In this document: positions 5,736-51,340 of the stretch, in pieces
How positions within the stretch are numbered: position 1 is the first letter of the stretch
Layout: each line of letters starts with the position of its first letter
Virus record (IMG/VR): IMGVR_UViG_3300005573_000013
Location: 1-51,794 of that record
DNA length: 51,794 nucleotides
Source: a virus
Taxonomy: Duplodnaviria; Caudoviricetes
Reading direction: 5' to 3' (one strand)
Notes under the pieces: model-generated
Told to the model about the DNA's origin: nothing
The model's database searches: none
Seen by the model: only the letters and a program-made list of their open reading frames with translations
Position numbers and translations under genes: made by a program

Positions 5736-6473
5736 TTGACGCTTGATGAATTCATCAAGAGGTATGATGACACCTATCTTGAGTTCGATGGGGCTTTTAA
5801 GTATCAGTGCCAAGATTTGGCGAAGGCTTGGGAGGCGGAAAATGGCTGGCCGATTATCAGAGGGAATGCCAATCAAGTAATTAACAACGCTCCAAAAGAT
5901 TTTTATGAGGTAGTCGATAAACCTCAAAGGGGCGATTTGGTTGTCTGGAATATCGGAGATTATGGTCATATCGCCGTGTTTGTAGAGCCGACGGCTGATG
6001 GCTTCATCTCGTTTGACCAGAATTATCCTGTGGGAACGCCTTGCCATCTTCAAAAGCATACCTACAAAAATATATTAGGTTATTTAAGACCGAAAGGAGA
6101 AACAATGACCGAAGAACAAAAACATCGTGAAGCGGTGGAGTGGGCGTTCCGATCAATTTATATGAAAGAACCCACTAAAGCCAAGATTGACTATATCATT
6201 GCCCAGCCAGATGGCGGAGACATTATGAAAGTCCGCCAAGCAATGATTGACGAGGTGTGTGCGGGAAAGTTAGTCGAACAGGAGAAGCAATTGACCGCCA
6301 AATGCCAAAATCAGTTATTGGAACAGGCTGCCAAGTTAAATGCCGACTGTCAAAAGAGAGTTAATGAAGCTATTGAGATTGGGCAAAAGAGCGTTGTCTG
6401 TCCTGATATTGATAAGTTGGGTGCGGGCGAGTTGATTGCGATGGGATTGAGAAAGTGGTTGGGAATTAAATAA
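5736..6473 (+). CDS. CHAP-domain endolysin with C-terminal coiled coil
   Basis: QCQDL (Cys), GDLVVW, YGHIAV (His), DQNY motifs; GAGGAGG SD before a TTG start. Confidence 0.85.
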   Translation: MTLDEFIKRYDDTYLEFDGAFKYQCQDLAKAWEAENGWPIIRGNANQVINNAPKDFYEVVDKPQRGDLVVWNIGDYGHIAVFVEPTADGFISFDQNYPVGTPCHLQKHTYKNILGYLRPKGETMTEEQKHREAVEWAFRSIYMKEPTKAKIDYIIAQPDGGDIMKVRQAMIDEVCAGKLVEQEKQLTAKCQNQLLEQAAKLNADCQKRVNEAIEIGQKSVVCPDIDKLGAGELIAMGLRKWLGIK

Positions 6474-6490
6474 TTATGTTAACAATATAA

Positions 6491-6587: not shown

Positions 6588-7340
6588 ATGCGGTATTACA
6601 CGGTTAAGGTTGACAAGCCGAAAATCTATCTTATCCCCTTTTCCGATACTCACTTCGGAAGAAAGGATATCGACGAGAAAGCCATCAGGGATTATGTTGA
6701 CTGGATTAAGCGAACCCCAGAAGCCTATGTCTGGTTGAACGGCGATTTGATTGAGTGTATCCCCAGAGACTCGCCAGGCGACATCTACGACCTCCAGTTG
6801 GTTTCGGCTGATGCCCAGATAGAAAGGGTCAGTGAGGTTTTCAAGCCCATCAGAGGGAAAATCATTGCCATAGTTTCGGGCAATCACGAAAATCGGGTGT
6901 ATGATAAGACTGGCGTTGATGTCAGCCGAGCCATCGCCAAAGAACTTGGCATTCAGAAATACTACGATGGCGTGGCGGTGATGGTGAGGCTCATCGTCGG
7001 CAAGGAAACCTATTATGTCTACGGCACGCACGGCTTCACGCTGGCTCGAACCGTCGGCGCTAAAGCCAATTCCTTTGAGTGGATGATGGGAAATGTTGAA
7101 GCCGATGTCTACATCATCAGCCACTCACACTCCAAGTTGACCTACTCAAGAGAAAGAGTTTATCCCCTGATAAGACCAATGAGGCTTCAGATGAGAAAGA
7201 AGTTGGGGGTGATGTCCAGCAGTTGGTCTTACTGGTATCGCAACAGTTATGTTGAAAGACGACAGTTCATTCCGCCGTCGAGGGGAACGGCGAGAATTCG
7301 CTTGGATGGGCGACGATGGGACGTTCACTGCTCGATTTGA
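6588..7340 (+). CDS. Calcineurin-like metallophosphoesterase
   Basis: SDTHFG, NGDLIE, GNHE, THG and SHSH motifs; AGGAG SD before ATG 6588. Confidence 0.88.
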   Translation: MRYYTVKVDKPKIYLIPFSDTHFGRKDIDEKAIRDYVDWIKRTPEAYVWLNGDLIECIPRDSPGDIYDLQLVSADAQIERVSEVFKPIRGKIIAIVSGNHENRVYDKTGVDVSRAIAKELGIQKYYDGVAVMVRLIVGKETYYVYGTHGFTLARTVGAKANSFEWMMGNVEADVYIISHSHSKLTYSRERVYPLIRPMRLQMRKKLGVMSSSWSYWYRNSYVERRQFIPPSRGTARIRLDGRRWDVHCSI

Positions 7341-7621
7341 GGTTTCTACAGGTTATCTGCGCTCTGCGGAAAAGTCGTCTTTACGAGAGACGACTTTCGG
7401 ACATCTACGGCAAGTGTTACAAACAGAAAATCACGATTGATAGTGAGCTTCATACTGTGATGAAGTTAAGAACCCTTCTCCACGAAGGTCTCCACCTTGC
7501 CTATCCTAACTGGTCGGAGAAAAGAGTCGTCGCCACCGAGAAAGAAATCTGGCGACGAATTACCGCCAGACAGGTAGAGAAATTAGCAAGGATTTACCGA
7601 CGAATTAAGGGGGCGGCTTGA
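7337..7621 (+). CDS. Small HEXXH zincin-like protein
   Basis: TLLHEGLH motif; TTGA overlap with the upstream stop gives the likely start. Confidence 0.6.
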   Translation: MRFLQVICALRKSRLYERRLSDIYGKCYKQKITIDSELHTVMKLRTLLHEGLHLAYPNWSEKRVVATEKEIWRRITARQVEKLARIYRRIKGAA

Positions 7622-7638
7622 GACCGCCCCCACAATCC

Positions 7639-7814
7639 TTAAGGTTCTGGGTGCTGGGTTGGCCCAAAAAGACCCTCGCTATGGGGTTACGGCAGGCTTA
7701 ATCCCCTAAAGGGAAGCGGTCGTTCCTGCCTAAACAATCAAATCAGTAGCAGGCAGGTTATAGGGATTTATCGGCCGTAAAATTTGTCCCTATACCCAGC
7801 ACTGAGAACCTTAA
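7639..7814 (+). ncRNA. 176-nt multibranch structured RNA
   Basis: ~20-bp closing stem 7639-7659/7794-7814 with three internal hairpins; intergenic. Confidence 0.6.
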
Positions 7815-7826
7815 AAGGGGAAAGCA

Positions 7827-7991
7827 ATGGCGACAATCGAGTTGACCCTGAAGTGTCAGAGGTGTGATACGGACTTACAGCCGTATTACATCACCGCCAA
7901 GAGGCGGGTGTTCAGGTGTCCCGCCTGTCATCTCCTTTATCTTGTTGTTATTGAAGTTTGCTTGATACTAGAAAAGGAGGTGAGAACTTGA
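7827..7991 (+). CDS. 54-aa zinc-ribbon protein (not in ORF track)
   Basis: MATIELTLKCQRC...FRCPACH, two CxxC pairs. Confidence 0.65.
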   Translation: MATIELTLKCQRCDTDLQPYYITAKRRVFRCPACHLLYLVVIEVCLILEKEVRT

Positions 7992-8135: not shown

Positions 8136-9596
8136 ATGGAAATAAATAAAATATATCAAGGTGATTGTTTAGAGGTTTTAAAAACTTTTCCTGATGAATG
8201 TGTGGATTGTATTATTACTTCACCGCCTTACTGGGGTTTAAGGGATTACGGGGTTGAAGGACAGCTCGGACTTGAAAAAACCCTTGATGAATACCTTAAC
8301 AAAATGCTTTTAATTACCGCCGAACTGAAACGAGTCCTTAAAAAGACAGGGACGATGTGGTGGAATCACGGGGATTGTTATGGAAGTTCACCAGCAGGAA
8401 ATAACCCTGAAAATGTTGAAAAGTGGGGGGAGAAAGGCGATGGTTTCTATAAACGATTGAGTATTAGACACAGACAAGGAAATAGTAAAAATAAACCTAC
8501 ACCAAAAAGCCAATCAGTTCCTAAAAAATGTCTTGCTCTTCAAAATTGGCGGTTAATTTTACGAATGATTGACGAACAACAATGGATACTTCGCAATGTA
8601 ATTGTCTGGCACAAACCAAACCATATGCCCAGTAGCGTCAAAGACCGCCTGACAAATAGTTATGAACCAGTTTTCTTTTTAACAAAAAGCCGTCGCTACT
8701 TCTTTGACCTTGATGCTATCCGTGTTCCACACAAAACTATGGAAAAGAGACCATTAAGAAGTTTTAATTATTGTGTTCGTGACGCCGAAAAGAAATCAGA
8801 ACAATGTCCGCAATTTAAAGCAACGAAAGAGGAAATTGAGAAATATAAGTTTTTAGGACATCAAAATCCTAATAGGGCAGGTAGAGATTATAAAGACCCT
8901 GAAAAAGCAATTCAGGCAAAGATGAGGTGGTATCAGCATAAAACCCATTATCCCCAAGACCAAGCAGAAAGTTTTGGAAGTCCGAGAGCAAGATATTGGA
9001 GAAAACAAAAATTTATTACCCCAGAGCAACAGAAAGAAACCCAAGAAAAAACTGGTTGGATAGAAGGTAGTGGAAGAATAAGAAGTTTTTTTGATAATTT
9101 TGGTGGACAAACAAATCCTCGTGGTAAAAATCCTGGAGATATAATTTTTCCTGATTTAATAGAAGAATTATCAGCTAAATTTCACGAAATCTATCAAGAA
9201 GAAGCAAAAAGACAGGGAGATGTAAGACATAAAGATGATTATAATGAATTGTCCGAAAACATTAAAGAGTTTGATAGAGTTTTGGCGCGATGGGTATTAC
9301 AGAACTTTCAGATTAAACAAGATATACCTAACGATATTTGGCGAATTCCCACTCAACCCGCCCCACCAGAAGTTAGGGGAAAGCATTTTGCCACCTTCCC
9401 CGAGAAACTCGTTGAGCCGATGATTAAGGCGGGATGCCCATTGAATGGCATTGTCCTTGACCCCTTTATGGGAAGCGGAACAATCGCCGTTGTTGCCAAG
9501 AAGTTAGGCAGGAATTATATTGGAATAGAACTTAATCCTGAATACATAGAGACAGCAAATAAAAGAATAAGTGCCATACCTGAAAAATTGATATAA
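8136..9596 (+). CDS. Orphan beta-class amino (N4-C/N6-A) DNA methyltransferase with long inserts
   Basis: TSPPY motif IV near the N-terminus, HFATFP and LDPFMGSGT motif I near the C-terminus. Confidence 0.92.
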   Translation: MEINKIYQGDCLEVLKTFPDECVDCIITSPPYWGLRDYGVEGQLGLEKTLDEYLNKMLLITAELKRVLKKTGTMWWNHGDCYGSSPAGNNPENVEKWGEKGDGFYKRLSIRHRQGNSKNKPTPKSQSVPKKCLALQNWRLILRMIDEQQWILRNVIVWHKPNHMPSSVKDRLTNSYEPVFFLTKSRRYFFDLDAIRVPHKTMEKRPLRSFNYCVRDAEKKSEQCPQFKATKEEIEKYKFLGHQNPNRAGRDYKDPEKAIQAKMRWYQHKTHYPQDQAESFGSPRARYWRKQKFITPEQQKETQEKTGWIEGSGRIRSFFDNFGGQTNPRGKNPGDIIFPDLIEELSAKFHEIYQEEAKRQGDVRHKDDYNELSENIKEFDRVLARWVLQNFQIKQDIPNDIWRIPTQPAPPEVRGKHFATFPEKLVEPMIKAGCPLNGIVLDPFMGSGTIAVVAKKLGRNYIGIELNPEYIETANKRISAIPEKLI

Positions 9597-10662: not shown

Positions 10663-10691
10663 TTGACAAAAATAAAAAAGTATGATATAAT
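10663..10691 (+). promoter_or_regulatory. Consensus sigma70 promoter
   Basis: TTGACA-17-TATAAT with extended TG. Confidence 0.85.
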
Positions 10692-33124: not shown

Positions 33125-33730
33125 ATGGAAATCGTTAATGTTAAAATTAGAGACTTGAAGTTCGCCGAATACAATCCCCGGGAGATAACTGAACACGACT
33201 ACGAAGCACTGAAAAACGCCATTAAGGAGTTCGGGATCGTCGACCCGATAATCGTGAACAAGAAGGAAAACCAGATTATCGGCGGTCATATGCGGGTCAG
33301 GGCGGCGCAGGAACTTGGGATGGAGGAGGTTCCGGTTTACTATATTGATTTGCCGGAAAACAGGGCGAAAATCCTGAACCTTGCCCTCAATAGGATTCAG
33401 GGAAGGTGGAACAGGGAAAAATTAGAAAAGATGATCTATGACTTATCACAAGCAGAGGTAAACCTTCCGCTTACCGGATTTGAGGATTGGGAACTTGAGT
33501 TTTATAATCCCGGACCGATAGATGATAGTAAAAAAGAATGGATTGGGATGCCGGCATTTGAACCGATTGACGATTCCCTTAAAATAATAATTCATTTTGA
33601 GAATGAAGCTAATAGGGATGAATTCATACAAAAATATGCTTTTCGGATAGCTGAAAAGGGAAAAAGAACATGGTCGACGTGGTATCCGTTTAAGGAAAAG
33701 GTAGATGAATCATCAGTTAAATATGAGTAA
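33125..33730 (+). CDS. ParB/Srx N-terminal domain protein
   Basis: AEYNPR, FGIVDPIIVN, IIGGHMR, LNRIQGRW; C-terminal EWIGMPAF motif. Confidence 0.88.
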   Translation: MEIVNVKIRDLKFAEYNPREITEHDYEALKNAIKEFGIVDPIIVNKKENQIIGGHMRVRAAQELGMEEVPVYYIDLPENRAKILNLALNRIQGRWNREKLEKMIYDLSQAEVNLPLTGFEDWELEFYNPGPIDDSKKEWIGMPAFEPIDDSLKIIIHFENEANRDEFIQKYAFRIAEKGKRTWSTWYPFKEKVDESSVKYE

Positions 33731-34610
33731 ATTTAAGCCAAAATATCCGGTATATATTATTTCTAAGGGAAGATACGATTGTTGCCTGACGGCAGATATT
33801 TTCATTAATGATGGAGTTGATTTTAAGTTAGTCGTTGAACCACAGGAACAAGAATTATACCGTAGTAGATATGGAAAAAAGGTAAAGGTTTTACCATTTT
33901 CCAACCTTGGTAAAGGTGGAACACCTGCAAGAAATTGGTGTTGGGAAGATTCCGTAAAGGATGGGTTTAAACGTCATTGGATATTTGACGATAATATACG
34001 CAAGTTCAGGAGGATGTATAAGGGACACAGGATTCCGTGTAATGCCAATGTGGCGATGAGGGTTATAGAGGAATTTACGGATAGGTATGAGAATATTGGA
34101 ATTTCTGGCTTTAATTATAGCATGTTTACGCCACCAAGGACAAAGGTTCCATATAGATTGAATTGCCACGTTTATTCGGCGATGCTTATCAATAATGAGA
34201 TTCCATGGAGGTGGAGGCTTAAATATAATGAGGATACCGACCCTTGTCTCCAGGTTGTTACTCATGGCATGTGTACGGTTCAGTTTACAAGTTTCACTAT
34301 TGATAAGCAAAGAACGATGACGATGAAGGGCGGTAATGCGGAAATTTATAAGGGAAAAGGAAGGTTGATAATGGCAAGATTATTGGAAAAAATTTGGCCA
34401 GAACATGTCAAGGTGGTCTGGAAATTCGGCAGGCCATAGCATTCTATCAATTGGTTAAAATTCAAAAATCGGCTTATAAGGAAAAAGGACATAGATTTCA
34501 ATAATTTACCCAAGGTAGATGACTTTGGGCTTAAGTTGAGGAAAGTCGCCGATGAGATAAAGTCGGACGAGTTAAGGAAGATTTATGACGAGAGCATTAC
34601 GAACAATTAA
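33723..34610 (+). pseudogene. GT-A glycosyltransferase of the TET/JBP-associated (DNA-base) type, interrupted by an in-frame TAG at 34437-34439
   Basis: YIISKGR, ARNW, HWIFDDNI, YNEDTD, MKGGN motifs; frame stays open 56 more codons to TAA 34610. Confidence 0.65.
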
Positions 34611-34993
34611 AGGATTCCATTTATTGTAAAGAATTCTTTAAGGTCAATTTTCGGTAAGTCTTTTTCCCAAATCTTGATGACCCTATATCCCATTAGCTTT
34701 AATTTTAATCGTTTCTTAAGTTCGTTATATTTTCCCAAGAGGAGTTTTCTTTTCCACCACCAGTTAACTTTACGTAAGGTAGAAAGCTTCCTCAAGTGCC
34801 AAAAGTCGCCATCAACGAATAAGGCAGTCTTATCGATAAGAAAATCCGGAGTACCAGGTAAACCATGTGCCTGATAAGTAAATCGCACCTTCAGTCGTAT
34901 GAGCGCTTCCTTGACGAAAAGTTCCGGCTTTGTATCTTTACCCCTAATTTTAGACATTATGTGACTTCGCTGTTCTTTGGTGAATTTATCCAT
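34607..34993 (-). CDS. vsr: Very short patch repair (Vsr) endonuclease
   Basis: MDKFTKEQRSHIMSKIRGKDTKPE, LPGTPDF, FVDGDFWH, IWE. Confidence 0.9.
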   Translation of the reverse strand: MDKFTKEQRSHIMSKIRGKDTKPELFVKEALIRLKVRFTYQAHGLPGTPDFLIDKTALFVDGDFWHLRKLSTLRKVNWWWKRKLLLGKYNELKKRLKLKLMGYRVIKIWEKDLPKIDLKEFFTINGIL

Positions 34994-35054: not shown

Positions 35055-35486
35055 ATGCAACAGAAATACAATAAGGAAGCCGTAAGGGCGTATTTAGAGG
35101 ACGATAAGGACAAGTTAAATAAGATGGTTTTGGAAGCGGAGCCAATCGTGATCTTATTGTTAAGGATTCAAGAGGGAAATTTCTATGAGGATGCCTATGC
35201 CCTTGCGGGAATTCCCGAGTCGACTTTTTATGAATGGAAAAAGAATCATCCGGAGTTTTTGGAGGCAATAAAAAAGGCCGATATCATCTGCAAGTCCTTA
35301 CACATCAAAAACATCAAAAAGCATTCCGATAAGCAGTGGCAGGCATCGGCTTGGTATCTCGAAAGGAGATACCCAAACGAATTCAGGGAACGCAAGGAAT
35401 TCGAGCACAAGGGTAAACTAACTTTGGAGGAGTTTTTAAGTGGAGACGACTTCGATAGAAATGAGACGGGAGCTGATAAGGAATGA
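35055..35486 (+). CDS. terS: Terminase small subunit
   Basis: AGIPESTFYEW HTH, WQASAWYLERRYP; directly upstream of terL. Confidence 0.8.
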   Translation: MQQKYNKEAVRAYLEDDKDKLNKMVLEAEPIVILLLRIQEGNFYEDAYALAGIPESTFYEWKKNHPEFLEAIKKADIICKSLHIKNIKKHSDKQWQASAWYLERRYPNEFRERKEFEHKGKLTLEEFLSGDDFDRNETGADKE

Positions 35487-36843
35487 CGAGAGGCTGTACA
35501 TTGAAAGGGTGCTTGGCAACCGAATATGGTCGAGGCAGGCTGAAATCGTCAAGGCGGTCCAAGAAAACAAGCGGGTGGCGGTCAAAAGTTGCCATAGTTC
35601 TGGAAAGTCTTTCATAGCGGCAAGAATAGCCTTGAAGTTCTTACATTCTTATCCCCATTCGACCGTATTGACGACCGCCCCGACCTGGCGACAGGTCAAT
35701 GATATCCTCTGGAAGGAGATAAACACCGCCTACAACAACGCCAGATACAAACTTCCCGGAACAATGCTTGATGTCCGCTACAATATAGACGAGGACTGGT
35801 TTGGTGTGGGGCTTTCGACGACGGAGTCCGACAAGTTTCAGGGCTATCACTCCAACTACATTCTGGTGATTGTCGACGAGGCAAGCGGCGTTGAGAAGAA
35901 GATTTACGATGCCATTGAGGGAGTGACTTCAACCGGCTTTACGAGAGTCCTTTTAATTGGTAATCCCAACGACCCGACCGGATACTTCGCCGATGCTTTC
36001 AAGTCGCCAATTTGGACCAAGATTACGATAAGCTGCTTTGACACACCGAACTTTAACAGCATCCCGAATCTAGAGGCGTTAAAGAATTCCACCGAGGAAC
36101 AGAGAAGAGAGGCGACCATTTATCCCTACCTGATAACACCCCAGTGGGTTTGGGAAAGGATGCAGGAATGGGGCGAGGATAGTCCGCTCTTTCAGGCAAG
36201 ATGCTTGGGGGAGTTTCCGACCGAATCAACGGATACTTTAATAGCATTGAAATATGCCGAAGCCGCCTTGAGGAATGAAAATCCAAAGGACGGCGATTGG
36301 TTCATTGGTCTTGATGTCGCTCGAATGGGCGACGATAGGACGGCCTTTGTTATTCGTAAGGGAGATGATGTAAAGAGGGTAGAGTGGTTTCAAAAGGAGG
36401 ACACGATGCAGACCGTCGGCAGGGCGATAAACTTTTTACAGGAATATCCGGAAGCCAAGATGAGGATTGATGCCATCGGCGTCGGTGCCGGGGTGGTTGA
36501 CAGGCTAAAGGAATCAGAGTACTCCGACAGGGTTGAGGGGGTGAGTGTCGCCGAGTCCACCGCTTCGGAAGGGGAAATGAAGTATGTCAACATCCGGGCA
36601 AAACTTTATTGGAGATTAAGACAAAAGTTTATGAATGGCGAAATCAGGCTGATTGACAGGGGCACGATAGTGAGCGACTTGACCAACCTGAAGTATCGGT
36701 TCAGGTCAAGCGATGGGGCGGTTCAGATAGAGAGCAAGGAGGAATTAAAAAAACGGGGGTTGAGGAGTCCTGACCTTGCCGACGCCTTGGCACTATCGTA
36801 TGCCGAGGATATCAATCCCCAACCGGATATCTATTTCGTCTAA
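35440..36843 (+). CDS. terL: Terminase large subunit
   Basis: Walker A SCHSSGKS, Walker B VIVDEA, IGNP, GLDVA, DAIGVG, SPDLADA. Confidence 0.95.
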   Translation: METTSIEMRRELIRNDERLYIERVLGNRIWSRQAEIVKAVQENKRVAVKSCHSSGKSFIAARIALKFLHSYPHSTVLTTAPTWRQVNDILWKEINTAYNNARYKLPGTMLDVRYNIDEDWFGVGLSTTESDKFQGYHSNYILVIVDEASGVEKKIYDAIEGVTSTGFTRVLLIGNPNDPTGYFADAFKSPIWTKITISCFDTPNFNSIPNLEALKNSTEEQRREATIYPYLITPQWVWERMQEWGEDSPLFQARCLGEFPTESTDTLIALKYAEAALRNENPKDGDWFIGLDVARMGDDRTAFVIRKGDDVKRVEWFQKEDTMQTVGRAINFLQEYPEAKMRIDAIGVGAGVVDRLKESEYSDRVEGVSVAESTASEGEMKYVNIRAKLYWRLRQKFMNGEIRLIDRGTIVSDLTNLKYRFRSSDGAVQIESKEELKKRGLRSPDLADALALSYAEDINPQPDIYFV

Positions 36844-36847
36844 AGAC

Positions 36848-36875
36848 TTGACAAGACCATTTTTTATGATATAAT
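36848..36875 (+). promoter_or_regulatory. sigma70 promoter of the com-like/head-tail operon
   Basis: TTGACA-16-TATAAT with extended TG. Confidence 0.75.
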
Positions 36876-36886
36876 AGGAGTGAATA

Positions 36887-37051
36887 ATGAACGAATTCCG
36901 CTGTAAGCGATGTGGACATTTGTTGGCCAAAGAAGAAATCATCTTTGGGCAGGTTGAGATAAAGTGTTATGCCTGCAATGAGTTGAATACGATTACGTAT
37001 GATTACAACATTCAACAGACATACACAGCAGAGTTAATTCCAGCAAATTAA
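36887..37051 (+). CDS. Mu Com-like zinc-finger regulator, 54 aa (not in ORF track)
   Basis: MNEFRCKRCGHLLAKEEIIFGQVEIKCYACNELN matches the Com pattern RCxxCxxLL...EIKCxxCxxxN; AGGAG upstream. Confidence 0.8.
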   Translation: MNEFRCKRCGHLLAKEEIIFGQVEIKCYACNELNTITYDYNIQQTYTAELIPAN

Positions 37052-37060
37052 ATAGTTTTA

Positions 37061-37118
37061 GAAGGCTCTCTTGAAGCCCTATTTGAGGACATTAAGTCCC
37101 TGAATAGGGCTTTTTTGT
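37061..37118 (+). terminator. Intrinsic terminator with overlapping alternative hairpin (attenuator 1)
   Basis: GCCCTATT/AATAGGGC plus TTTTTT; the 5' arm overlaps GGCT-CTCTTGA-AGCC. Confidence 0.7.
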
Positions 37119-37148
37119 ATAAAAAAAGGACTAATAACAGGAGTAACA

Positions 37149-38558
37149 ATGACTGAAAAGAAAGAAGAACAAAAGGTGGACTTTAAGACAATTCCCCATA
37201 CCACCGCCTTTGTCGAGGAGATAGAGGAAGATGGGGTAAAGCAGAAGCTGTTTGTGGCCTCCGATGAGGTCGTGGATAGGCAGGGCGAGGTTCTATCTAC
37301 TGATGGTTGGAAACTGGACAATTTTAAGAAAAATCCGGTAATTCTATGGGCTCACAACCAACTTGAACCGGCGATCGGGATAGCCGAGAAAATTGGATTC
37401 AAGACGGTTCAAGGGGTTAAGAAACTGGTCTTTGAGCCGAAGTTTCATCGAAAGTCGGACATATCAAGATTAATCGCTGACTTGGTTGATGAGGGATGGA
37501 TTAAGGCGTCATCGGTTGGTTTCTTGCCGATAGAGCGGGATGACAAGGTTTATAAGAAACAGGAACTTTTGGAAATCTCATTCGTTAATGTTCCGGCTAA
37601 CCAGAATGCTCTTGGATTGGCGTTGAGCAAGGGATATTCACCTGAAGTCATAAAACAGATTATGCCGGATGTTAAGGATGAGGACATTTGCCCGCCACAG
37701 AAGGATGTCGAAGACATCGAGTTTAAGGGAGCAATTCCCTACACCAAGTATCCATTGGCAGATGAGAATGTAGAGTGGGACGCCGGAGCGGAGGTTAGGA
37801 ATGCTGACGTGGACGACCTGAAAAAGATGTGTGCTTGGTATGATTCGGCGAACCCAGACCTTAAGGGTTCATACAAGCTGCCGCATCACCAGTTGAGCGG
37901 TTATAAGACCGTTTGGCGAGGCGTGTCGGCGGCAATGGCAGCTCTGATGGGAGCGAGGGGTGGAGTGCAAATTCCGGACTCGGATCGGATGGGTGTCTAC
38001 AATCACCTTAAGAGACATTATGCCGATTTTGACAAGGAACCGCCAGAATTGAGGACAGCTGACCAGATAATCGAAAAGTATGTTGAGAACAGGTCTGCCG
38101 ACGATTCTGTCAGGGACTTGATTAAGTTGGTCAATACTTATATCGAGGAAGGCAAGGTTGCCGAACTTGGTAAGTCGGTAGAGGAACTGAAGATTGCCAT
38201 AGAGAAGTTTATTGATGATTCAAACAAAGCTAATGCCGAGCAAAAGGCAATCCAAGAGTCAGAAAGAGAAAGCCTTGAGAAAAGAATTAAGGGAATTGAG
38301 CTGAATATCCAGGGATTGTCCGAGGGAATCAAGCCGGGAGACGAGGGCTTGGAAGCAAGGATTGCCGGCATTGAGAGAAATTTTGAAAATCTTACGAGGG
38401 ACATAAAGTCCTTCTTAGATATGCCTGTTAAGGGCACGAATGGTCGAGAACTTAAGTCGGTCGAGGGAGAAGACAAGAAGTCAATGACCCGACGCCACTT
38501 AATCTACAAGGCACTCAATAAAAGTGTTGAGGCCTTAAATCTTTTAGAAAAGGAATAG
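37149..38558 (+). CDS. HK97-type prohead protease fused to an extra domain and a coiled-coil (scaffold-like) tail
   Basis: VDRQGE, NPVILWAH, SSVGF, LLEISFVNVPAN. Confidence 0.9.
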   Translation: MTEKKEEQKVDFKTIPHTTAFVEEIEEDGVKQKLFVASDEVVDRQGEVLSTDGWKLDNFKKNPVILWAHNQLEPAIGIAEKIGFKTVQGVKKLVFEPKFHRKSDISRLIADLVDEGWIKASSVGFLPIERDDKVYKKQELLEISFVNVPANQNALGLALSKGYSPEVIKQIMPDVKDEDICPPQKDVEDIEFKGAIPYTKYPLADENVEWDAGAEVRNADVDDLKKMCAWYDSANPDLKGSYKLPHHQLSGYKTVWRGVSAAMAALMGARGGVQIPDSDRMGVYNHLKRHYADFDKEPPELRTADQIIEKYVENRSADDSVRDLIKLVNTYIEEGKVAELGKSVEELKIAIEKFIDDSNKANAEQKAIQESERESLEKRIKGIELNIQGLSEGIKPGDEGLEARIAGIERNFENLTRDIKSFLDMPVKGTNGRELKSVEGEDKKSMTRRHLIYKALNKSVEALNLLEKE

Positions 38559-38559
38559 G

Positions 38560-39669
38560 ATGGACGAAGACAAAGACAGTTTAGATGAGAAGGTTGAGGA
38601 AGAGGCTGATAAGGAAGCCGAGAAGTTCATGGCCAATATCCAGAAGTTGGTAGAAGCTGAGGTTGAGAAGCTTGTTGGGAAAAAGGAAGAGAAACTTGGA
38701 GATGAGAAAGAGATTACCAAAGAGTCCGTCAAAGAGATGGATGCTCAGACCAGAAGCACGGAGTTTATTCGGGCATTATTGACGAACCAGAAGGAAAAAC
38801 TCCAAGTGCTTTCTGAGGGGACGAATGCCCTTGGTGGATATCTGGTCCCGGCCGTTCTCTACAATCAGATTGTAGAGGAACAGCGGGATGTTGCGGTCAT
38901 CCGTCCACGGGCTACCGTCATTGACCCCTGTCCGAAACAGCTGAACATTGACCAGTTGGCCACCAGACCAAAAGTCTATTGGAGAAGCGAAGCGGCCGTC
39001 AAGTCAACTTCGACGCTTCAATTCAACCAAATCTCCCTTACACCTTATTCATTGGCCGTGATTGTGGTTCTTACTAAAGAGTTGGTCGCCGATGCCCAGA
39101 TTCCGCCTTCAATCATCAATTACGTGATTAACCAGATTGCTACCGCTATTGCCGAAGAAGAGGATAAAGTCTTCATGGTTGGAACCGGATCGGGACAACC
39201 GACGGGGATTGATACTTACTCCTCAACCGTTCACCGCACCGTTACTACCGCTGCTAATGTGCTGACCTATGACTGCTTGGTTGACGCCCTTTACAAGCTT
39301 GGGTCTAAATATCGCAGGAATGCCGTTTGGTTGATGAATTCGAATACCCTCAGGAAGGTGATGCTACTCAAGGACTCGCAGAATAGGCCGATTTTCGTCG
39401 CTGACCCGACGGGTGATTTACCCGGAACCGTTTTGGGACGCCCAGTTCTTGAGCAGAATAACTTGGCAGAATCACACATCTGGCTCATTGACCTTAAGGG
39501 TTACTGGATCGGTGTTCGCGAGGGTATCAACGTGATGCAGTCTGAAGAAGCTTCCGTCGGAGGTTACAGCACATTTGAGCGTAATGAAGTTGCCATCAGG
39601 GTTGAAGAGAGGGTGGATGGTGAGTTAGCCGACCTTGACTGTGCAGTTTGCATTACTGGCACAAACTAA
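38560..39669 (+). CDS. HK97-fold major capsid protein
   Basis: GGYLVP, GTGSGQPTGI, AVWLMN, LKDSQNRP, VLGRPV, RVEERVDG. Confidence 0.95.
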   Translation: MDEDKDSLDEKVEEEADKEAEKFMANIQKLVEAEVEKLVGKKEEKLGDEKEITKESVKEMDAQTRSTEFIRALLTNQKEKLQVLSEGTNALGGYLVPAVLYNQIVEEQRDVAVIRPRATVIDPCPKQLNIDQLATRPKVYWRSEAAVKSTSTLQFNQISLTPYSLAVIVVLTKELVADAQIPPSIINYVINQIATAIAEEEDKVFMVGTGSGQPTGIDTYSSTVHRTVTTAANVLTYDCLVDALYKLGSKYRRNAVWLMNSNTLRKVMLLKDSQNRPIFVADPTGDLPGTVLGRPVLEQNNLAESHIWLIDLKGYWIGVREGINVMQSEEASVGGYSTFERNEVAIRVEERVDGELADLDCAVCITGTN

Positions 39670-45731: not shown

Positions 45732-47434
45732 TGGCTGAGAAAAAGTTTTTATACAAGGTTTACAACAAGAATGGTGAATTTATCAAGAGTTGGGATGACG
45801 TTGTCAATGACCCGGATTTCTCTTGGAACATAAATGAGGGATTGGGTGAGCTTACCGTAAGGCTTCCGAGGACGTTTGATGTCTTCGGTGAGTCGGATGA
45901 CGTGGCGGTTGGCAACGAGGTCCAGGTCTGGTGCGACAGGGGCGGGACAAAGAATACGCTCGAGGTGGAGCAGTTGAATTACACTACCGGCTCAATCGGC
46001 TGGGGGACTACCTCGCAGGAGAGGATAGCCCAGACGTTCCAACCGACGCACGACTACAAGTTGAGCAGGGTGACCCTTTGGACCGTGAGAAATGGCTCAC
46101 CACATGACAACATCGAGATGGAACTTTGGGCCGGCGATTCTAACAACCCGACCTACAAGATGGCGAATGCCCAAAACAGAATACTCGGGAGCTTACAACC
46201 GACCCAGAACATCAAGACGGCCGACATGCACTTTGACTTTGGTAAAATCCAACTTTACTCCGGACAGACCTATTGGCTGATTATGACGAGGGATGGGGGT
46301 CTTGATAATACGAATTACTATGCTCTTCTGGCTTCCTTCAATGCCACCGATAATTATTTGAGGGGAGGGGCGAAGAAATACACTACCGCTGCCGGATGGA
46401 GCGATTACCTTACGAATTCGGACTTTTGTTTCAAGATTTATTCCGGGGAAGACGATGTTAAGAAGATTTACTCAGGATACATCTCGGCCTATGAGCCGGT
46501 GATTCAGGGCAGAGATGAATATGTAGATGTTCATTGTCTTGGTTACGGCTCGCAGTTAAATAACGAAATCCATAAGTCCGGAAATAGTACGACGGTTGCC
46601 TATAACTCGTGTACCATCGCCAGCATTGTCAAGACGATGATGGATGACTTTAAGCAATATAACTTTAAGGTTAGTTATGGTGATTTGTATAGGTTCCTTG
46701 AGGATACGAATACGGTCGTCAGTTATACCTTCAATACCCAAACCCATAAACAGGTGATTGACAAGTGCCGCGAGATGGCTCCGGCGAACTGGTACTGGCG
46801 GGTTGGGGCTGACAACATTTTGGAATTCAAGCAAAAGAATTCTGAAGCCGACCATTACTTTACTATCGGCAAGGACATCATCTCAATCAGACAAAATAAG
46901 AGGATAGAGGATTTGTATAATGTCGTCTACTTCAAGGGAAAGGATACCCTTTACCGGGTCTACACCCGCTCCGGCTCGATTGCCAACTATGGAAGACGGG
47001 CATACATGATGCAGGATGAGAGGGTGACCCTGGATGCGACGGCCGATGTAATGGCTAATTCGTTTCTCGATGAGCATGATGCTATCGAGACAAGGGTAGA
47101 GGTTGACATCCTGGGGCAGACGGAATCCGGCGGATTGGGTTATGACATTGAGTCGATCTATCCCGGCCAGACTTGCCAGATAAGGAACTTCAATACCGAG
47201 GCTTCGGAATCGTTGTGGGACCAGGCATTATGGGATGTCAATGTCTGGGATTACGACATCTCCTACTTACTTGGAACGGTCCTGCAGATAAAGTCGGTCA
47301 AGTATACACCAGGCAAGGCAACGATATCTCTGTCATCAAGGCCATTGCCGGTGGCAAGCACGATGGAGAACATCTACAGAAACTTGGAAGGTTATAGGAA
47401 TGCGGAGAATCCCGCCACGCCGACGGCGGCATAA
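45731..47434 (+). CDS. Baseplate hub/Tal-like protein with an inserted beta-sandwich domain
   Basis: Synteny after Dit; IYSGYI, SIANYGRR, WDQALWD motifs. Confidence 0.72.
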   Translation: MAEKKFLYKVYNKNGEFIKSWDDVVNDPDFSWNINEGLGELTVRLPRTFDVFGESDDVAVGNEVQVWCDRGGTKNTLEVEQLNYTTGSIGWGTTSQERIAQTFQPTHDYKLSRVTLWTVRNGSPHDNIEMELWAGDSNNPTYKMANAQNRILGSLQPTQNIKTADMHFDFGKIQLYSGQTYWLIMTRDGGLDNTNYYALLASFNATDNYLRGGAKKYTTAAGWSDYLTNSDFCFKIYSGEDDVKKIYSGYISAYEPVIQGRDEYVDVHCLGYGSQLNNEIHKSGNSTTVAYNSCTIASIVKTMMDDFKQYNFKVSYGDLYRFLEDTNTVVSYTFNTQTHKQVIDKCREMAPANWYWRVGADNILEFKQKNSEADHYFTIGKDIISIRQNKRIEDLYNVVYFKGKDTLYRVYTRSGSIANYGRRAYMMQDERVTLDATADVMANSFLDEHDAIETRVEVDILGQTESGGLGYDIESIYPGQTCQIRNFNTEASESLWDQALWDVNVWDYDISYLLGTVLQIKSVKYTPGKATISLSSRPLPVASTMENIYRNLEGYRNAENPATPTAA

Positions 47435-47443
47435 AGGAGAATT

Positions 47444-47761
47444 ATGGAGATAAAAGAGTTTCACTGCCCCATCTGTGGGGACAAATTCATTGAGAAACTA
47501 CCAAACAACAGGGTTAAGTTTTTGCCTAACCATTGGCAATACCAAGTTGAATTGGATACGGGACAGAGGGCTTGGTTTGGGGTCTGCAAGAAACACAAAG
47601 GAGAAATCACCAAGGAATTATCCGATGAGCTCCTGGAGGCACACAAGAGGTTTTGGGGTAAAGAAATTGATTCCAACGGTAAACTTAATGATAAACAGAA
47701 GGAAGTAATGAAATCAGAATATCAAGCATTAACGATTAATAAAGTTTTAGAAAGGATTTAA
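47444..47761 (+). CDS. Hypothetical zinc-binding protein
   Basis: CPIC...CKKH; AAAGGAG SD. Confidence 0.6.
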   Translation: MEIKEFHCPICGDKFIEKLPNNRVKFLPNHWQYQVELDTGQRAWFGVCKKHKGEITKELSDELLEAHKRFWGKEIDSNGKLNDKQKEVMKSEYQALTINKVLERI

Positions 47762-47762
47762 A

Positions 47763-48242
47763 ATGGCGACAGGAGTCACGAATGTCTTTACGCCTAACAC
47801 AAGGATAAAATCTTCGGAGGTTAACCAAGATTTTACTGATGCCTGTACTACCGAGAGGCATACCTTTACTCCGTCCGGAAGGATATCGGCGTCGACACTT
47901 GATGGGGCCCTGGCGGAACTTGATGATGAGAAACCCCACTTGGTTAAGAGACAAGGAGGGAGTTCAACTAACTGGTCAACGGCTGGCACAACTGGGTATG
48001 ATGTTACGGATGCTGTAATTCAGTGTGGAGCAGTTAGCATTGCTGCTGGAGCAACGGCGACAGTTACCTTTCCAACGGCTTTTACGCAAACACCAGTAGT
48101 TGTTTGCTCCTTACTAACAGCGAATCAGGTAACTACGCCACTTAACATCATATCGGTATCTACTACCCAAGTTCAGATAAAACATACCCAAGCTTCACCC
48201 GCCTATACAGTTGTTGCCTTGTGGATAGCGATTGGGAAATAA
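47763..48242 (+). CDS. Short tail fibre/receptor-binding protein (gp53-like/H-lectin C-terminus)
   Basis: FTPNTRIKSSEVNQDF, IQCG, VTFPTAFTQTP, WIAIG. Confidence 0.78.
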   Translation: MATGVTNVFTPNTRIKSSEVNQDFTDACTTERHTFTPSGRISASTLDGALAELDDEKPHLVKRQGGSSTNWSTAGTTGYDVTDAVIQCGAVSIAAGATATVTFPTAFTQTPVVVCSLLTANQVTTPLNIISVSTTQVQIKHTQASPAYTVVALWIAIGK

Positions 48243-48243
48243 A

Positions 48244-48272
48244 TTGACAGAACCTAAAAAGTATGTTAAGAT
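48244..48272 (+). promoter_or_regulatory. sigma70 promoter of the portal operon
   Basis: TTGACA-17-TAAGAT with extended TG. Confidence 0.7.
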
Positions 48273-48284
48273 ATAACCAAGTCA

Positions 48285-48330
48285 GAGGCACTGTGAATGC
48301 CCAAGAGGTTATATCCTTTTGGGCTTTTTG
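48285..48330 (+). terminator. Intrinsic terminator with overlapping alternative hairpin (attenuator 2)
   Basis: GCCCAAGAGG/CCTTTTGGGC plus TTTTT; the 5' arm overlaps GGCA-CTGTGAA-TGCC. Confidence 0.7.
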
Positions 48331-48342
48331 AAAGGAGAAAAT

Positions 48343-50832
48343 TTGAAATTCATTGACTCGTTTATTGAGCGGAAAGTTAGGGCAAAGTGGGGAAGTGTCC
48401 TTGATGAGTTTACTGACCAGCTCAACACCAAGTGGTCGCAGGATAATTGGGCTATCATCAACCCAAGTTGGTTTGGAATACCAGCCCACCAAAAGACGGA
48501 TGCCTTTCTAAGGGAATACATTGGTTGGAATTATGCCAATGTATCCGCGATTGCCGAGGCGGTATCTGACATTCAGATAAAACTTTACAGGTATGACCAA
48601 AAGAAGGAGGAAGTTGAAGAAGTTAAAGAGCATCCATTGTTGGAGCTTCTTTACAAGGTTAACCCGTCAATGACTAAAAACGACTTCTTTTTCATTCTTC
48701 AGGCAAACCTGTTATTGACTGGTGAAGCCCCAATTCGCTTGAGGAGAGTAAGTCAGGCTAATTTGAGCCAACCGCCGTATGAACTTTACCCACTTAACCC
48801 GGCGGATGTGAAAATCTTTATTGGCTCTACGAGTGATGGCTTTGAAATGGTTGAAAGGTATGAGGTTAGGGATAAACAGAGACCAAATGAGTGGATAAAA
48901 CTAAAGCCGTGGGAAGTCATTTTTATAAAAAATGTTAACCCGAATAATCCTTGGCGGGGAGCCGGAGTGGTTGAGGCGGCGGCGAGAACAATTGACACAT
49001 TAAATTATTCGGAAATCTACAATCTGAACTTTTTCAAGAACTCGGCCGTTCCTTACACAGTTCTCTATACGGAAAATAAGCTCAATAAGGAGACGATTGA
49101 TCGACTTAGAAACCTCTGGACATCCAAATATGAGGGACCGGAAAATGCCTATAAGACGGCTATCCTTGACCAAGGACTGAAAATAGAGCGACTCCAGACT
49201 GCCGCCAAGGATATGGACTTCTTGGAACAGCAGAGGTTTTTGCGGGATAAATTGATGGCCATGTATAAGACGACTAAGGTGGTTTTGGGGATAGTTGAGG
49301 ACGTCAATAGGGCAAATGCCGAGGCTTCTGAGTATGTCTTTATGAAAAGGTGCGTTAGGCCGAAGATGAGGAAGTTAGTTGATTATCTTAATGAGTTCTT
49401 AGTTCCGCTATTTGACCCAGATGGCACGAAGGGGATATTCCTTGACTTCGAGGATCCGGTTCAAGAAGATAAGACGACGGAATATACGCAGTTGAACGTT
49501 GCCGTCAATAAATGGATTACGATCAATGAGGCACGAGAGCAACAGGGTAGAGAGCCGATTGATGGGGGAGATGAGATTTGGCAACCGCTGAACCTTGCTC
49601 CGATTGGTCCGATGAAGCCGAAGACCGAAAAGCCGACCGAAAAACCTGAGGAACAGCCTGAGGAAGGAGTTGAAGAGGGACAACCCGAACTGGAAGAAAT
49701 TGGAGGGGGCAAGTATGTCCGTGTCCTTAGGGCTAAGAGGGTAAAGGGAATACCCAAGAGATTTGCTGAACAGATAGCGAAAATGCGGAACAGGAACGTC
49801 ATGATTAAGCAGTTGACAAAGGAAATTGAGGAACAAATTAAGAAGATAGTTAGAGTTAGGGTAGCCAAGAAATACAATAAAGAAAAACCCAAGTATAAAA
49901 ACATCCTTACCAAAGAAACCAAGGAGAAATTCTCGGTCAACCAAATCAAGATTTCGGAGAAGTTTGAGGCGAAAATCCAAGATATCATTGAGAATAAAAT
50001 CTACAAACCTCAACAGGAAGAAATAGCGTCCAACATCAAAAAGATTGGAGTGAAATTTCTGCTCAAGGGAACCGAGAGGCAAAGAATTAAATCAGCATCT
50101 AACTACATGTTTGATAAAGAGAAATGGGTGATTGCCGCTATGGATCTCCTGACGCCAGAAATTGAGGCTATTATAGAAACGCAGGGTCAAGAAGCAATGG
50201 ACTTGCTTGGACAGGGAATGAACTACAGTCTTCTTGAGGCGGCAAGGCAATACCTCAATAAAGAGCCGTTGAAGGCGTCTAAGAGCTTCAATGACACAAT
50301 TTACGAGAAAGTCAGGAACGCCTTGGCTGAAGGATTAGCTAAAGGCGAAAGTGAAACACAGCTTATTGAAAGGGTAAGGGATGTTTATTCTAACTTGGAA
50401 GATTATCAGGCACAGAGGATAGCAAGGACTGAAGTATCGAGAGCAACCAATTTTGCGACCCTTGATGGGTATAGGCAATCAGGGATAGTGAAGGGAAAGC
50501 AATTCTTAACCGCACAGGATGAGCGGGTATGTGAATGGTGCGGTCCCTTAGATGGCAAGATTGTTGGGCTAGAAGAAAACTTTTTTGATAAGGGGGACTC
50601 CTACATGGGTAATGCCGATAGCCCATTGACCTTTGAGTATGGTGATGTTGAAGCCCCACCGCTTCATGTAAATTGCCGGTGTACTATCGTTCCGGTGTTA
50701 GAGGAGGTGAAGTCTGAGGAACCGGAGACAAAAAGCGAAAGGAATTCCAAAGAAGTTATCAAATCGGAGGCTGAGGTGTTACTCGAAAAAATAGAAAAGG
50801 AATTAAATGACGCCGGAAGAGCTCAAAGCTAA
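48343..50832 (+). CDS. HK97-family portal protein fused to a MuF/SPP1-gp7 head morphogenesis domain
   Basis: HPLLELL..VNP, DMDFLE, VNRANAE, ITINEAR, then RIARTE, DERVCEWC, PPLHVNCRC; AAAGGAG SD before TTG 48343. Confidence 0.92.
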   Translation: MKFIDSFIERKVRAKWGSVLDEFTDQLNTKWSQDNWAIINPSWFGIPAHQKTDAFLREYIGWNYANVSAIAEAVSDIQIKLYRYDQKKEEVEEVKEHPLLELLYKVNPSMTKNDFFFILQANLLLTGEAPIRLRRVSQANLSQPPYELYPLNPADVKIFIGSTSDGFEMVERYEVRDKQRPNEWIKLKPWEVIFIKNVNPNNPWRGAGVVEAAARTIDTLNYSEIYNLNFFKNSAVPYTVLYTENKLNKETIDRLRNLWTSKYEGPENAYKTAILDQGLKIERLQTAAKDMDFLEQQRFLRDKLMAMYKTTKVVLGIVEDVNRANAEASEYVFMKRCVRPKMRKLVDYLNEFLVPLFDPDGTKGIFLDFEDPVQEDKTTEYTQLNVAVNKWITINEAREQQGREPIDGGDEIWQPLNLAPIGPMKPKTEKPTEKPEEQPEEGVEEGQPELEEIGGGKYVRVLRAKRVKGIPKRFAEQIAKMRNRNVMIKQLTKEIEEQIKKIVRVRVAKKYNKEKPKYKNILTKETKEKFSVNQIKISEKFEAKIQDIIENKIYKPQQEEIASNIKKIGVKFLLKGTERQRIKSASNYMFDKEKWVIAAMDLLTPEIEAIIETQGQEAMDLLGQGMNYSLLEAARQYLNKEPLKASKSFNDTIYEKVRNALAEGLAKGESETQLIERVRDVYSNLEDYQAQRIARTEVSRATNFATLDGYRQSGIVKGKQFLTAQDERVCEWCGPLDGKIVGLEENFFDKGDSYMGNADSPLTFEYGDVEAPPLHVNCRCTIVPVLEEVKSEEPETKSERNSKEVIKSEAEVLLEKIEKELNDAGRAQS

Positions 50833-51340
50833 ACGTCGTCAGATTCTGATAGATATTCTTGGTAAGTCAGAGACCATAGTTGAACTTAAGGAAATTAAGG
50901 AACTTCTTGCTCAAAAAGAACTTAAATATACCCCAGACACGAAGCTGGTGGAAGCAATTTTGAAGTTGGTTGAAAAGATTGATGAAATGCCGGAGATTCC
51001 CAAGAAGATTGAATCGCCGGTGGTCAATCTGTCTGTCCCCGAAAGGATGAAGGTAGACTGGGAAAATATGCCCAAGACCGAAGTCAAAACAGAGGTTGTT
51101 AAAATTCCCAGTTTCCTTAAGCCGATTGAGTGGTTGAAAAAACAGCTTGAGACTTTTCTCTCTCCGTTCTTGAATAGAATTATATCACTAATAAGCGAAC
51201 CTGATAGGACGGAAATACAGCGTACTCTGTCTGGGAATATAGAATCTATAACTGACTATTACGGTAAGCGAAAGGTAGTATATAAAGTAAGTTATAATAA
51301 TTCAAACGAAATCCAATCGGTGGATAGAAGTGAGAAGTGA
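50807..51340 (+). CDS. Hypothetical protein
   Basis: AAGGA SD; between the portal and the fibre. Confidence 0.65.
   Translation: MTPEELKAKRRQILIDILGKSETIVELKEIKELLAQKELKYTPDTKLVEAILKLVEKIDEMPEIPKKIESPVVNLSVPERMKVDWENMPKTEVKTEVVKIPSFLKPIEWLKKQLETFLSPFLNRIISLISEPDRTEIQRTLSGNIESITDYYGKRKVVYKVSYNNSNEIQSVDRSEK

Follow-up and report, generated by a model that had tools for sequence, protein, structure and literature searches.

How does a phage whose portal gene lies 11 kb from the start of its other virion genes turn on both sets of late genes together? The question is raised by IMG/VR virus record IMGVR_UViG_3300005573_000013 (Caudoviricetes), a phage record that is complete (51,794 bp, direct terminal repeats, CheckV completeness 100%) and the whole of which is the window analyzed here. 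Two of its operons, one running from a prohead protease to the tail genes and the other comprising portal, fiber and lysis genes, are each preceded by a small RNA hairpin and a predicted intrinsic terminator that begins within the hairpin's 3' arm. Site 1 lies just 3' of a com-like gene and before the protease gene, and site 2 lies between a promoter and the Shine-Dalgarno (SD) sequence of the portal gene. On the grounds of sequence, folding models and analogy, we consider it probable that a Com-family protein stabilizes the small hairpin as an anti-terminator at both sites and thereby turns on the two virion operons. In our estimation it is very likely that both hairpin-terminator composites are functional and, as regulatory elements, related. 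Their parts, in nucleotide (nt) positions of the window, are as follows.

36848..36875, + strand: promoter of the com-like gene, of the sigma-70-type consensus (TTGACA, 16-nt spacer, TATAAT, TG upstream), score 12/12
36887..37051, + strand: com-like gene (54 amino acids, aa; four-cysteine zinc ribbon, by Pfam and PHROG), proposed trans-acting RNA-binding regulator
37060..37078, + strand: site 1 small hairpin (AGAA 37060-37063; GGCT / CTCTTGA / AGCC 37064-37078), proposed Com target and anti-terminator
37076..37116, + strand: site 1 predicted intrinsic terminator (15-position stem 37076-37110; T6 37111-37116)
37149..38558, + strand: prohead protease/scaffold-like gene, first gene of the head-to-tail operon (PHROG and Pfam matches; synteny with the relative G001, described below)
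48244..48272, + strand: promoter of the portal operon (TTGACA 48244-48249, 17-nt spacer, TAAGAT 48267-48272, extended -10 TG), score 10/12
48284..48301, + strand: site 2 small hairpin (AGA 48284-48286; GGCA / CTGTGAA / TGCC 48287-48301), proposed second Com target
48299..48329, + strand: site 2 predicted intrinsic terminator (48299-48324, 10 pairs, 6 of them G-C; T5 48325-48329)
48331..50832, + strand: SD AAAGGAG (48331-48337) and portal gene, start TTG 48343-48345, with a C-terminal MuF-like head-morphogenesis part

An earlier, sequence-only reading had described a promoter, an AGA-preceded hairpin, an overlapping terminator, an SD and the portal gene at 48244-48345, together with a like hairpin at site 1, and all of these lie where it placed them. 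The T-A to A-T swap that it reported at the loop-closing pair is real, the contents that it gave for the two operons agree with the gene matches, and its statement that the rest of the two terminators is unrelated in sequence holds within the window and likewise within G001.

The anatomy at both sites is that of two alternative predicted folds. Each site carries a G-C-rich stem-loop that is followed by a U tract and folds better than shuffled sequence, with a minimum free energy (MFE) at 37 C of -23.2 kcal/mol (z -3.38) for the predicted terminator of site 1 and -19.9 kcal/mol (z -2.42) for that of site 2. At 37 C the free small hairpins are worth -4.0 kcal/mol (site 1) and -3.9 kcal/mol (site 2), values that fall to about 0 at 65-75 C; at both sites the terminator dominates the predicted fold at 37, 55, 65 and 75 C and is the default structure. 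The two structures also share an arm: at both window sites the letters GCC are common to the hairpin (3' arm) and the terminator (5' arm). Across all 17 tabulated sites the overlap amounts to 2-4 nt. When the small hairpin was enforced, the G-C pairs beside the U tract were lost at each of the 10 sites folded, and at site 1 the residual helix no longer abutted the U tract.

The nearest complete relative, G001 (53,179 bp), offers a view of the same two places at considerable distance. Its portal is 50% and its Com 37% identical to those of the window, its proteins overall are 31-62% identical, and its gene order is the same (terL, com, protease, capsid, tail genes, hub, promoter plus terminator, portal, 177-aa gene). 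At site 1 of G001, TTGAGGTCTTGAACCC follows com and continues into the terminator; at site 2, TTGACA, a spacer of ~16 nt (counted by eye, this locus having no promoter-scan score), TATAAT and 13 nt lead to TTGAGGTCTTGAACCC again, then to a different terminator, an SD and an ATG. Hence, an identical 16-nt hairpin motif occupies both orthologous places, and the entire G001 genome contains just three copies of its core, GGTCTT(T)GAACC: at site 1, at site 2 and at the apex of the site 1 terminator. The stems differ between the two genomes (GGU/ACC in G001 vs GGCW/WGCC in the window), with TGAA aligned between their site 2 copies, whereas within each genome the two hairpins are alike and the terminators proper are unrelated. 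Hairpins that are alike within a genome and different between genomes are what a genome-specific trans-acting reader predicts. The sequence-only reading had proposed that the second copy, having no regulator next to it, answers to one trans-acting protein that co-activates both operons; the paired G001 sites, the Com gene and the format of the hairpins (below) lend support to this proposal.

Com homologues gathered by protein similarity alone extend the arrangement further. A hairpin overlapping a terminator, followed by a head gene (the same protease in most cases), stands 3' of com in 14 distinct loci: the window, G001, L075, L070, L071, L073, L101, L103, L104, L107, L118, L120, L069 and L105. 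One com locus, L109, is without the hairpin-terminator element, and four (L067/L102, L106 and L108) are cut by contig ends. A promoter is present at the position equivalent to that of the window's com promoter in G001 and other com loci. The stems vary but always pair (GGCT/AGCC, AGCT/AGCT, GACT/AGTC, GATC/GATC, GCTT/AAGC, GAAC/GTTC, GGCC/GGCC, GGT/ACC and others). In an ungapped alignment of the hairpins of eight relatives, with the window excluded, 93.8% of the cells were paired and all four pairs had changes on both sides; the covariation score was 1.018 vs 0.321 in shuffles, none of 500 shuffles reached it, and shifting the partner columns abolished the signal. Further, when each of 17 terminators was held fixed and the 30 nt upstream of it were shuffled, overlapping hairpins of at least 4 bp were found at 14 of the 17 against 1.23 expected, and hairpins of at least 3 bp with a C..GA(A) loop at 12 of the 17 against 0.066 expected. 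Site 2 of G001 and the site of L105 were scored as misses in both tests (overlap definition, G-U pair), and site 1 of G001, with its 3-bp stem, missed the test for at least 4 bp.

Across a table of 19 hairpin instances, C follows the hairpin in every one, GA precedes it in 13, the loop starts with C in 15 and it ends with GA or GAA in 16. The loop letters TTGAA are invariant among site 1 of the window, site 1 of G001, L101, L103 and L075. Since GA is present in 13 of the 19 and the format is shared with the known Com site described below, the AGA before the hairpin is probably part of the recognized motif, to judge by these sequences.

The candidate reader is the product of the gene immediately upstream of site 1. 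The 54-aa protein scored 24.8 bits against Pfam PF10122 (Zn_ribbon_Com; cut-off 22.9) and 23.5 bits in a second scan, which places it in the Com family, and it matches phrog_6417 ('translational regulator') and phrog_13819 ('gpCom control of modification'). Its cysteines C6, C9, C27 and C30 are invariant across eight relatives, and 11 of the 13 relatives' proteins scanned scored above the Pfam Com threshold. The only Pfam families that it matched were zinc-ribbon families, with no CAT/PRD or ANTAR domain found, and a sequence search of the PDB with the Com alignment returned nothing below E 0.1. For the scan of loci, the 8-sequence Com alignment was too diverged, and a 4-sequence alignment was used instead.

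What Com proteins are known to read agrees in format with these hairpins, at the sequence level. Com of phage Mu binds a short hairpin beside the translation-inhibition structure of the mom mRNA, and systematic evolution of ligands by exponential enrichment (SELEX) yielded CC(N)2-3GAG in the loop and a bipartite GAG(N)2CC flanking a 3-4-bp stem, with GA dinucleotides protected on binding (PMC6483171). In the native Mu 19-mer, GAAUGCCUGCGAGCAUCCC, GA precedes a 4-bp stem that encloses the loop CUGCGA, and CCC follows it (PMC6483171). Site 2 of the window reads GA, GGCA, CUGUGAA, UGCC, C, so that five of the six native loop positions recur in its 7-nt loop, between the same flanks, and the overall format (a 3-4-bp stem with a C(N)nGA loop, preceded by GA and followed by C(C)) is found in our hairpins as well. 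The L104 hairpin, GAGAACCAAGAGUUCC, is nearly the designed binder RNA I of the same paper, and a hairpin of L054 (below) exactly fits both halves of the bipartite motif. There is one consistent difference from the SELEX motif reported there: the loop-closing pair is mostly U-A (A-U at site 2) rather than an invariant C-G.

These elements suggest how the switch could operate. Unaided, the RNA would fold into the terminator, so that transcripts from the com promoter would stop after com at site 1 and transcripts from the portal promoter would stop at site 2 as an RNA of about 50 nt. The Com-type protein, translated from the terminated com transcript, would accumulate and bind both hairpins; a bound hairpin would keep GCC from the 3' arm of the terminator and leave a residual helix short of the U tract, and polymerase would then read through into the protease-to-tail and the portal-fiber-lysis operons. 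In intrinsic termination the G-C base of the stem next to the U tract is indispensable. As the helix that remains when the hairpin is enforced is without that base at the U tract, we propose read-through upon clamping by Com; the binding of the protein and the resulting read-through are what we infer.

The proposed switch resembles, and departs from, several known systems. As in Mu com-mom, the protein is a four-cysteine ribbon of the same Pfam and PHROG families, the hairpin lies directly 5' of an inhibitory helix, which Com binding opens in Mu and would open here, and at site 1 the regulator gene stands immediately upstream of its target on one transcript. Unlike in Mu, the inhibitory helix is an intrinsic terminator with a U tract 5' of the SD instead of a helix that hides the start codon. 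No helix hiding the SD or start codon was found at the window sites, where the end of the U tract and the SD are separated by 1 nt at site 2 and by about 21 nt at site 1. Also unlike in Mu, the controlled genes are virion and lysis genes rather than DNA modification genes, and a second, unlinked target lies 11 kb off. BglG, SacY and LicT, acting on ribonucleic antiterminator (RAT) sequences, and the ANTAR regulators work through protein-stabilized antiterminator hairpins. The logic of antitermination proposed here would be that of these switches, carried out by a Com-type protein: the 3' arm of a weak hairpin overlaps the 5' arm of a terminator, termination is the default, and in some relatives two small hairpins stand in tandem as in ANTAR targets. 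In contrast to RAT and ANTAR systems, the 54-aa protein is a zinc ribbon alone, without a CAT/PRD or ANTAR domain, no sensory input is apparent, and the targets are phage late operons.

Two phage lambda systems invite comparison as well. With lambda Q and PR'/tR', a promoter and then a terminator lie ahead of the late genes, and site 2 is similar in having a strong, constitutive-looking promoter, a terminator within about 50 nt and late genes next. It is unlike the Q system in that the element is an RNA hairpin with covarying stems rather than a DNA element with a sigma-dependent pause; further, the Q-type antiterminator families PF06530 and PF03589 gave no matches at E <= 1 in the complete record, lambda's own Q family not being among those searched. 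Lambda N with boxB/nut and the put RNA of HK022 provide promoter-proximal hairpins that are read by, or act on, the transcription complex, and a small promoter-proximal RNA hairpin likewise heads the operons here. The differences from lambda N are that there is no arginine-rich N-like protein, that the hairpin always overlaps its terminator, and that no sign of Nus dependence or processivity is seen. A riboswitch reading was dropped, given that the leader, at about 50 nt, is too short and has no Rfam match. Rfam gave no gathering-score match in the window or in the 16 relatives' loci except one tRNA and two group I introns elsewhere, and only matches with chance-level E-values at the two sites.

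Within the window itself, the statistics depend strongly on what is counted. The sequence-only reading had called for a genome-wide pattern search and had taken a chance frequency of the motif as refutation. The bare pattern GGCW-N7-WGCC occurred 5 times against 1.58 expected (at least 5 in 2 of 100 shuffles), and a fuller format, defined as GA or GAA, a 4-bp stem, a loop C..GA(A) and then C, had 3 matches (37064, 38742 and 48287) against 0.86 expected, with 3 reached in 11 of 200 shuffles. Hence, refutation by the motif alone was nearly reached. In what we call the composite, the 3' arm of a fuller-format hairpin has to overlap the foot of a stem that has 9 or more pairs and a T tract behind it. 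The composite occurred exactly twice in the window, both times on the + strand and at the two sites, compared with a shuffle mean of 0.05 and with two or more in none of 60 shuffles, which is beyond chance. A composite with any loop permitted does not discriminate (6 observed vs 2.18 expected). The loop-constrained definition of the composite was made after the sites had been seen, so independent evidence must come from other genomes. The earlier statement that there is no third copy stands for the composite, of which the window has no third example. By the motif alone, a third Com-format match at 38742-38758 (GA, TGCT, CAGACCAGA, AGCA, C) lies within the major capsid gene, without a terminator and at a frequency compatible with chance.

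Several observations weigh against a Com-operated switch at both sites. The motif by itself is near chance, shuffled sequences fold as well as the small hairpins do (z -0.16 and -0.35), and at site 2 considered singly 5.2% of shuffles produce a terminator-overlapping hairpin of 4 bp or more. Site 2 has the support of one other genome only, G001; in G002, G003, G004, L118, L119 and L120, which are fragments, only the com-linked site was seen, and three additional Com queries of the viral collection brought in no loci other than L118-L120. The site 2 loop (CUGUGAA, with A-U closing) is unlike the U-CUUGA-A type of the relatives, and a competing mini hairpin of 3 bp (GCC CAAGA GGT, 48299-48309), built from the 5' arm of the site 2 terminator, could on its sequence be the real or a second binding site: its loop, CAAGA, is that of the L054 and L104 hairpins, and as GCCCAAGAGG it fits the published CC(N)2-3GAG motif. 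The proteins of G001 (22.4 bits) and L073 (15.6 bits) fall under the Pfam Com cut-off. The com promoter matches the host-type consensus perfectly, as do five near-identical, probably early promoters of this genome (below), and would not by itself account for a delay in timing. Translational activation is the sole activity demonstrated for Com (PMC6483171).

The covariance model belongs to the same side of the ledger. R1 (25 positions, 4 pairs), built from the hairpins of eight relatives and penalizing 7-nt loops, gave 13 matches in the window at E <= 10, none of which was site 1 or 2 on the + strand. Across 72 loci it returned its own training sites and one new hairpin (L107 2677-2701, E 0.2). 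We regard R1 as too short for its miss to be evidence against the sites. Its best match in the window was site 1 on the minus strand (E 0.21), where 37059-37083 resembles a Com-format hairpin. Because no minus-strand gene is near, this likeness is taken as a by-product of the near-palindromic hairpin.

Four other explanations of the two sites have to be weighed against control of termination by Com. The hairpins might serve processive antitermination of the lambda N/boxB kind, in which Com is handed to the polymerase and resists successive terminators, the overlap with the first terminator being incidental. In both genomes 8-14 nt separate the site 2 hairpin from the predicted start of the transcript, much as nut sites are placed near pL and pR; each operon extends over 11 kb or more; and L104 (1883-1895) and L107 (2677-2701) have extra upstream hairpins without terminator contact. 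Nevertheless, overlap with the terminator base at every tabulated site would be needless for such a mechanism, our scans gave no convincing additional + strand terminators inside the late operons, and the protein belongs to the zinc ribbons, not to the arginine-rich peptides, so that we hold processive action to be unlikely, if the leading one of these four. We rank next, as somewhat more doubtful, a regulatory hairpin with another reader, be it a host factor, the 30S subunit on an SD-like GAGG flank, or the ~50-nt terminated RNA itself acting as a small RNA or decoy. The 5' flank and stem do often read GAGG, the strong site 2 promoter would yield an abundant short RNA, and the binding of Com to the hairpin is itself something that we infer. 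Against this stand the 14 distinct loci, found by protein similarity, in which com immediately precedes such a hairpin, the agreement of the format with the SELEX and native Com sites, and loop types that, judged by eye, roughly track Com subgroups.

Com could instead act after transcription as in Mu, by activating translation of the first gene or by stabilizing or processing its mRNA, with the terminators being ordinary operon ends. Beyond the precedent of Mu, this has in its favor a 6-bp pairing of loop with SD that is predicted at two of the four leaders folded. In the read-through RNA of site 1, CUCUUG (37068-37073) pairs with the protease SD, CAGGAG (37138-37143), in both the MFE and the centroid structure, and at site 2 of G001 (L001 2970-2975 with 3009-3014) the MFE structure alone has GGUCUU paired with the SD region of the portal gene. 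Such pairing may, as modeled, add a translational layer to the switch. It is seen in only half of those leaders, however, and at both window sites the SD and start codon lie 3' of the U tract, outside the conserved helix; moreover, a promoter followed immediately by a strong terminator, as at site 2 of both genomes, would be senseless unless termination is regulated. We therefore judge a purely post-transcriptional role improbable. Lastly, these could be ordinary terminators with chance complementarity upstream and no switch at all, in line with the near-chance motif, the unexceptional stability of the small hairpins, the shuffles of site 2 and the failure of R1 at the window sites. The identical 16-nt motif at both orthologous G001 sites, the excess of overlapping hairpins over expectation with and without the loop constraint, the covariation and the rarity of two composites in shuffled windows all speak against this explanation, which was already disfavored and which we consider very improbable.

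If Com does control termination at both sites, the consequences reach beyond this phage. The Com hairpin switch is known; what would be new is its wiring to intrinsic terminators in a two-site late-gene regulon. In the full-text literature, with subscription journals and supplements outside the scope of the search, we found no link of Com-type proteins to antitermination or to virion operons, and a review describes the general role of Com-like genes, which precede varied cargo genes, as still to be explored (PMC6240691). There is, we feel, an even chance that Com zinc ribbons are widespread, unrecognized regulators of phage late genes, acting as minimal antiterminators of ~55 aa. Each Com, made from a host-type promoter, would then read its own regulon of GA...C..GA hairpin-terminators, timing virion and lysis operons with a single protein, and Mu com-mom would be one derived use of a general ability of Com hairpins to pry open an adjacent helix. 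Control of termination would be the first function of Com-like genes beyond mom translation.

Detailed knowledge of late control comes from a handful of model phages, in which it is exerted by Q, by N, by late sigma factors or by activators of the Ogr, RinA or Alt type; to our knowledge, most environmental phages are without an assigned late regulator. Two locks released by one 54-aa protein would be a simple and apparently common solution for late genes. It would also supply an annotation rule: where a small Com-type open reading frame (ORF) precedes a terminator with a GA-hairpin fused to it, a phage late operon begins. For synthetic circuits it would provide a protein-RNA part for antitermination that is very small, orthogonal and possibly thermostable. 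The sequencing runs listed as containing this phage (for 39001-49000) are two DNA runs, both labeled as hot springs metagenome.

The remaining genes of the late region, like every gene of the two operons treated here, are encoded on the + strand.

35055-35486, + strand: terS
35440-36843, + strand: terL
38560-39669, + strand: major capsid gene
47763-48242, + strand: fiber-like (tail fiber) gene, end of the protease-to-tail operon
5736-6473, + strand: endolysin gene, downstream of the giant fiber gene and small ORFs

The major capsid gene is followed by an adaptor, tail genes, a tape measure and a hub, and then by the fiber-like gene. The portal gene matches phrog_2662 (portal, E 7.9e-112), and 3' of it come a 177-aa gene and a giant tail-fiber gene that spans the record ends (51330 to 4471). 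The TTG at 48343-48345 is in the portal frame and aligned with the ATG start of the G001 portal, and it is the true portal start. Another TTG, at 48319, was dropped as the portal start, being located within the terminator, and the G001 portal starts at the aligned ATG instead. A megablast comparison of 47000-51000 with deposited phages gave no match, and sigma region 2 (PF04542) was not detectable in the record.

Elsewhere in the window, TTGACA-17-TATAAT promoters without a mismatch are found at 10663, 10719, 11521, 12338 and 16388, and the A-rich spacers of these five hardly differ. They probably form an early promoter set, and the com promoter at 36848 is the sole further 12/12 promoter match in the window. 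Preceding the terminase genes, 33125-34993 holds a ParB-N-domain gene, a TET-associated glycosyltransferase gene (PF20691, E 3.7e-42) and a minus-strand Vsr-type endonuclease gene, a cluster that suggests hypermodified DNA.

Among other viruses, L054 has a Com-format hairpin, GAGGCCCAAGAGGCCC, fused to a 15-pair terminator (3305-3362) directly after its portal gene, with no com gene within its 6.3 kb; it was found by the hairpin scan and is not an unbiased instance. In the more distant portal relatives L004-L047 (25-40% identity), 25 of the 38 distinct leaders have a terminator-like hairpin at most 130 nt from the portal start, often preceded by a consensus promoter. Three hairpins with TTTACGAA loops are present in L018, L035 and L045, and CTYAMGRGGAT-type motifs lie within the terminator in L020, L022, L024, L026 and L032. 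Small zinc-ribbon ORFs stand just upstream of the portal leader in L004, L015, L022, L023, L032 and L040 (matching phrog_5602 in L023 and L040); all of them score below Pfam Com, and they were not counted as Com. The portal-leader terminators, the TTTACGAA-type hairpins and the phrog_5602 ribbons suggest that these distant relatives may possess still broader variants. In L017, two group I introns (RF00028, 52.4 and 58.3 bits) lie downstream of the portal gene, at 6268-6485 and 7299-7547.

Finally, an intergenic stretch of the window at 7600-7830 is unusually structured (MFE -96 kcal/mol, z -4.99, none of 200 shuffles as good; no Rfam match). It has a long-range closing stem and contains an 8-bp G-C hairpin with the loop CTTGAGA at 7609-7631. 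A second small CxxC...CxxC ORF (7827-7991, 54 aa, 11-13 bits to Pfam Com) lies 3' of it and is directly followed by a DNA methyltransferase gene (8136-9596), an arrangement that recalls Mu com-mom.

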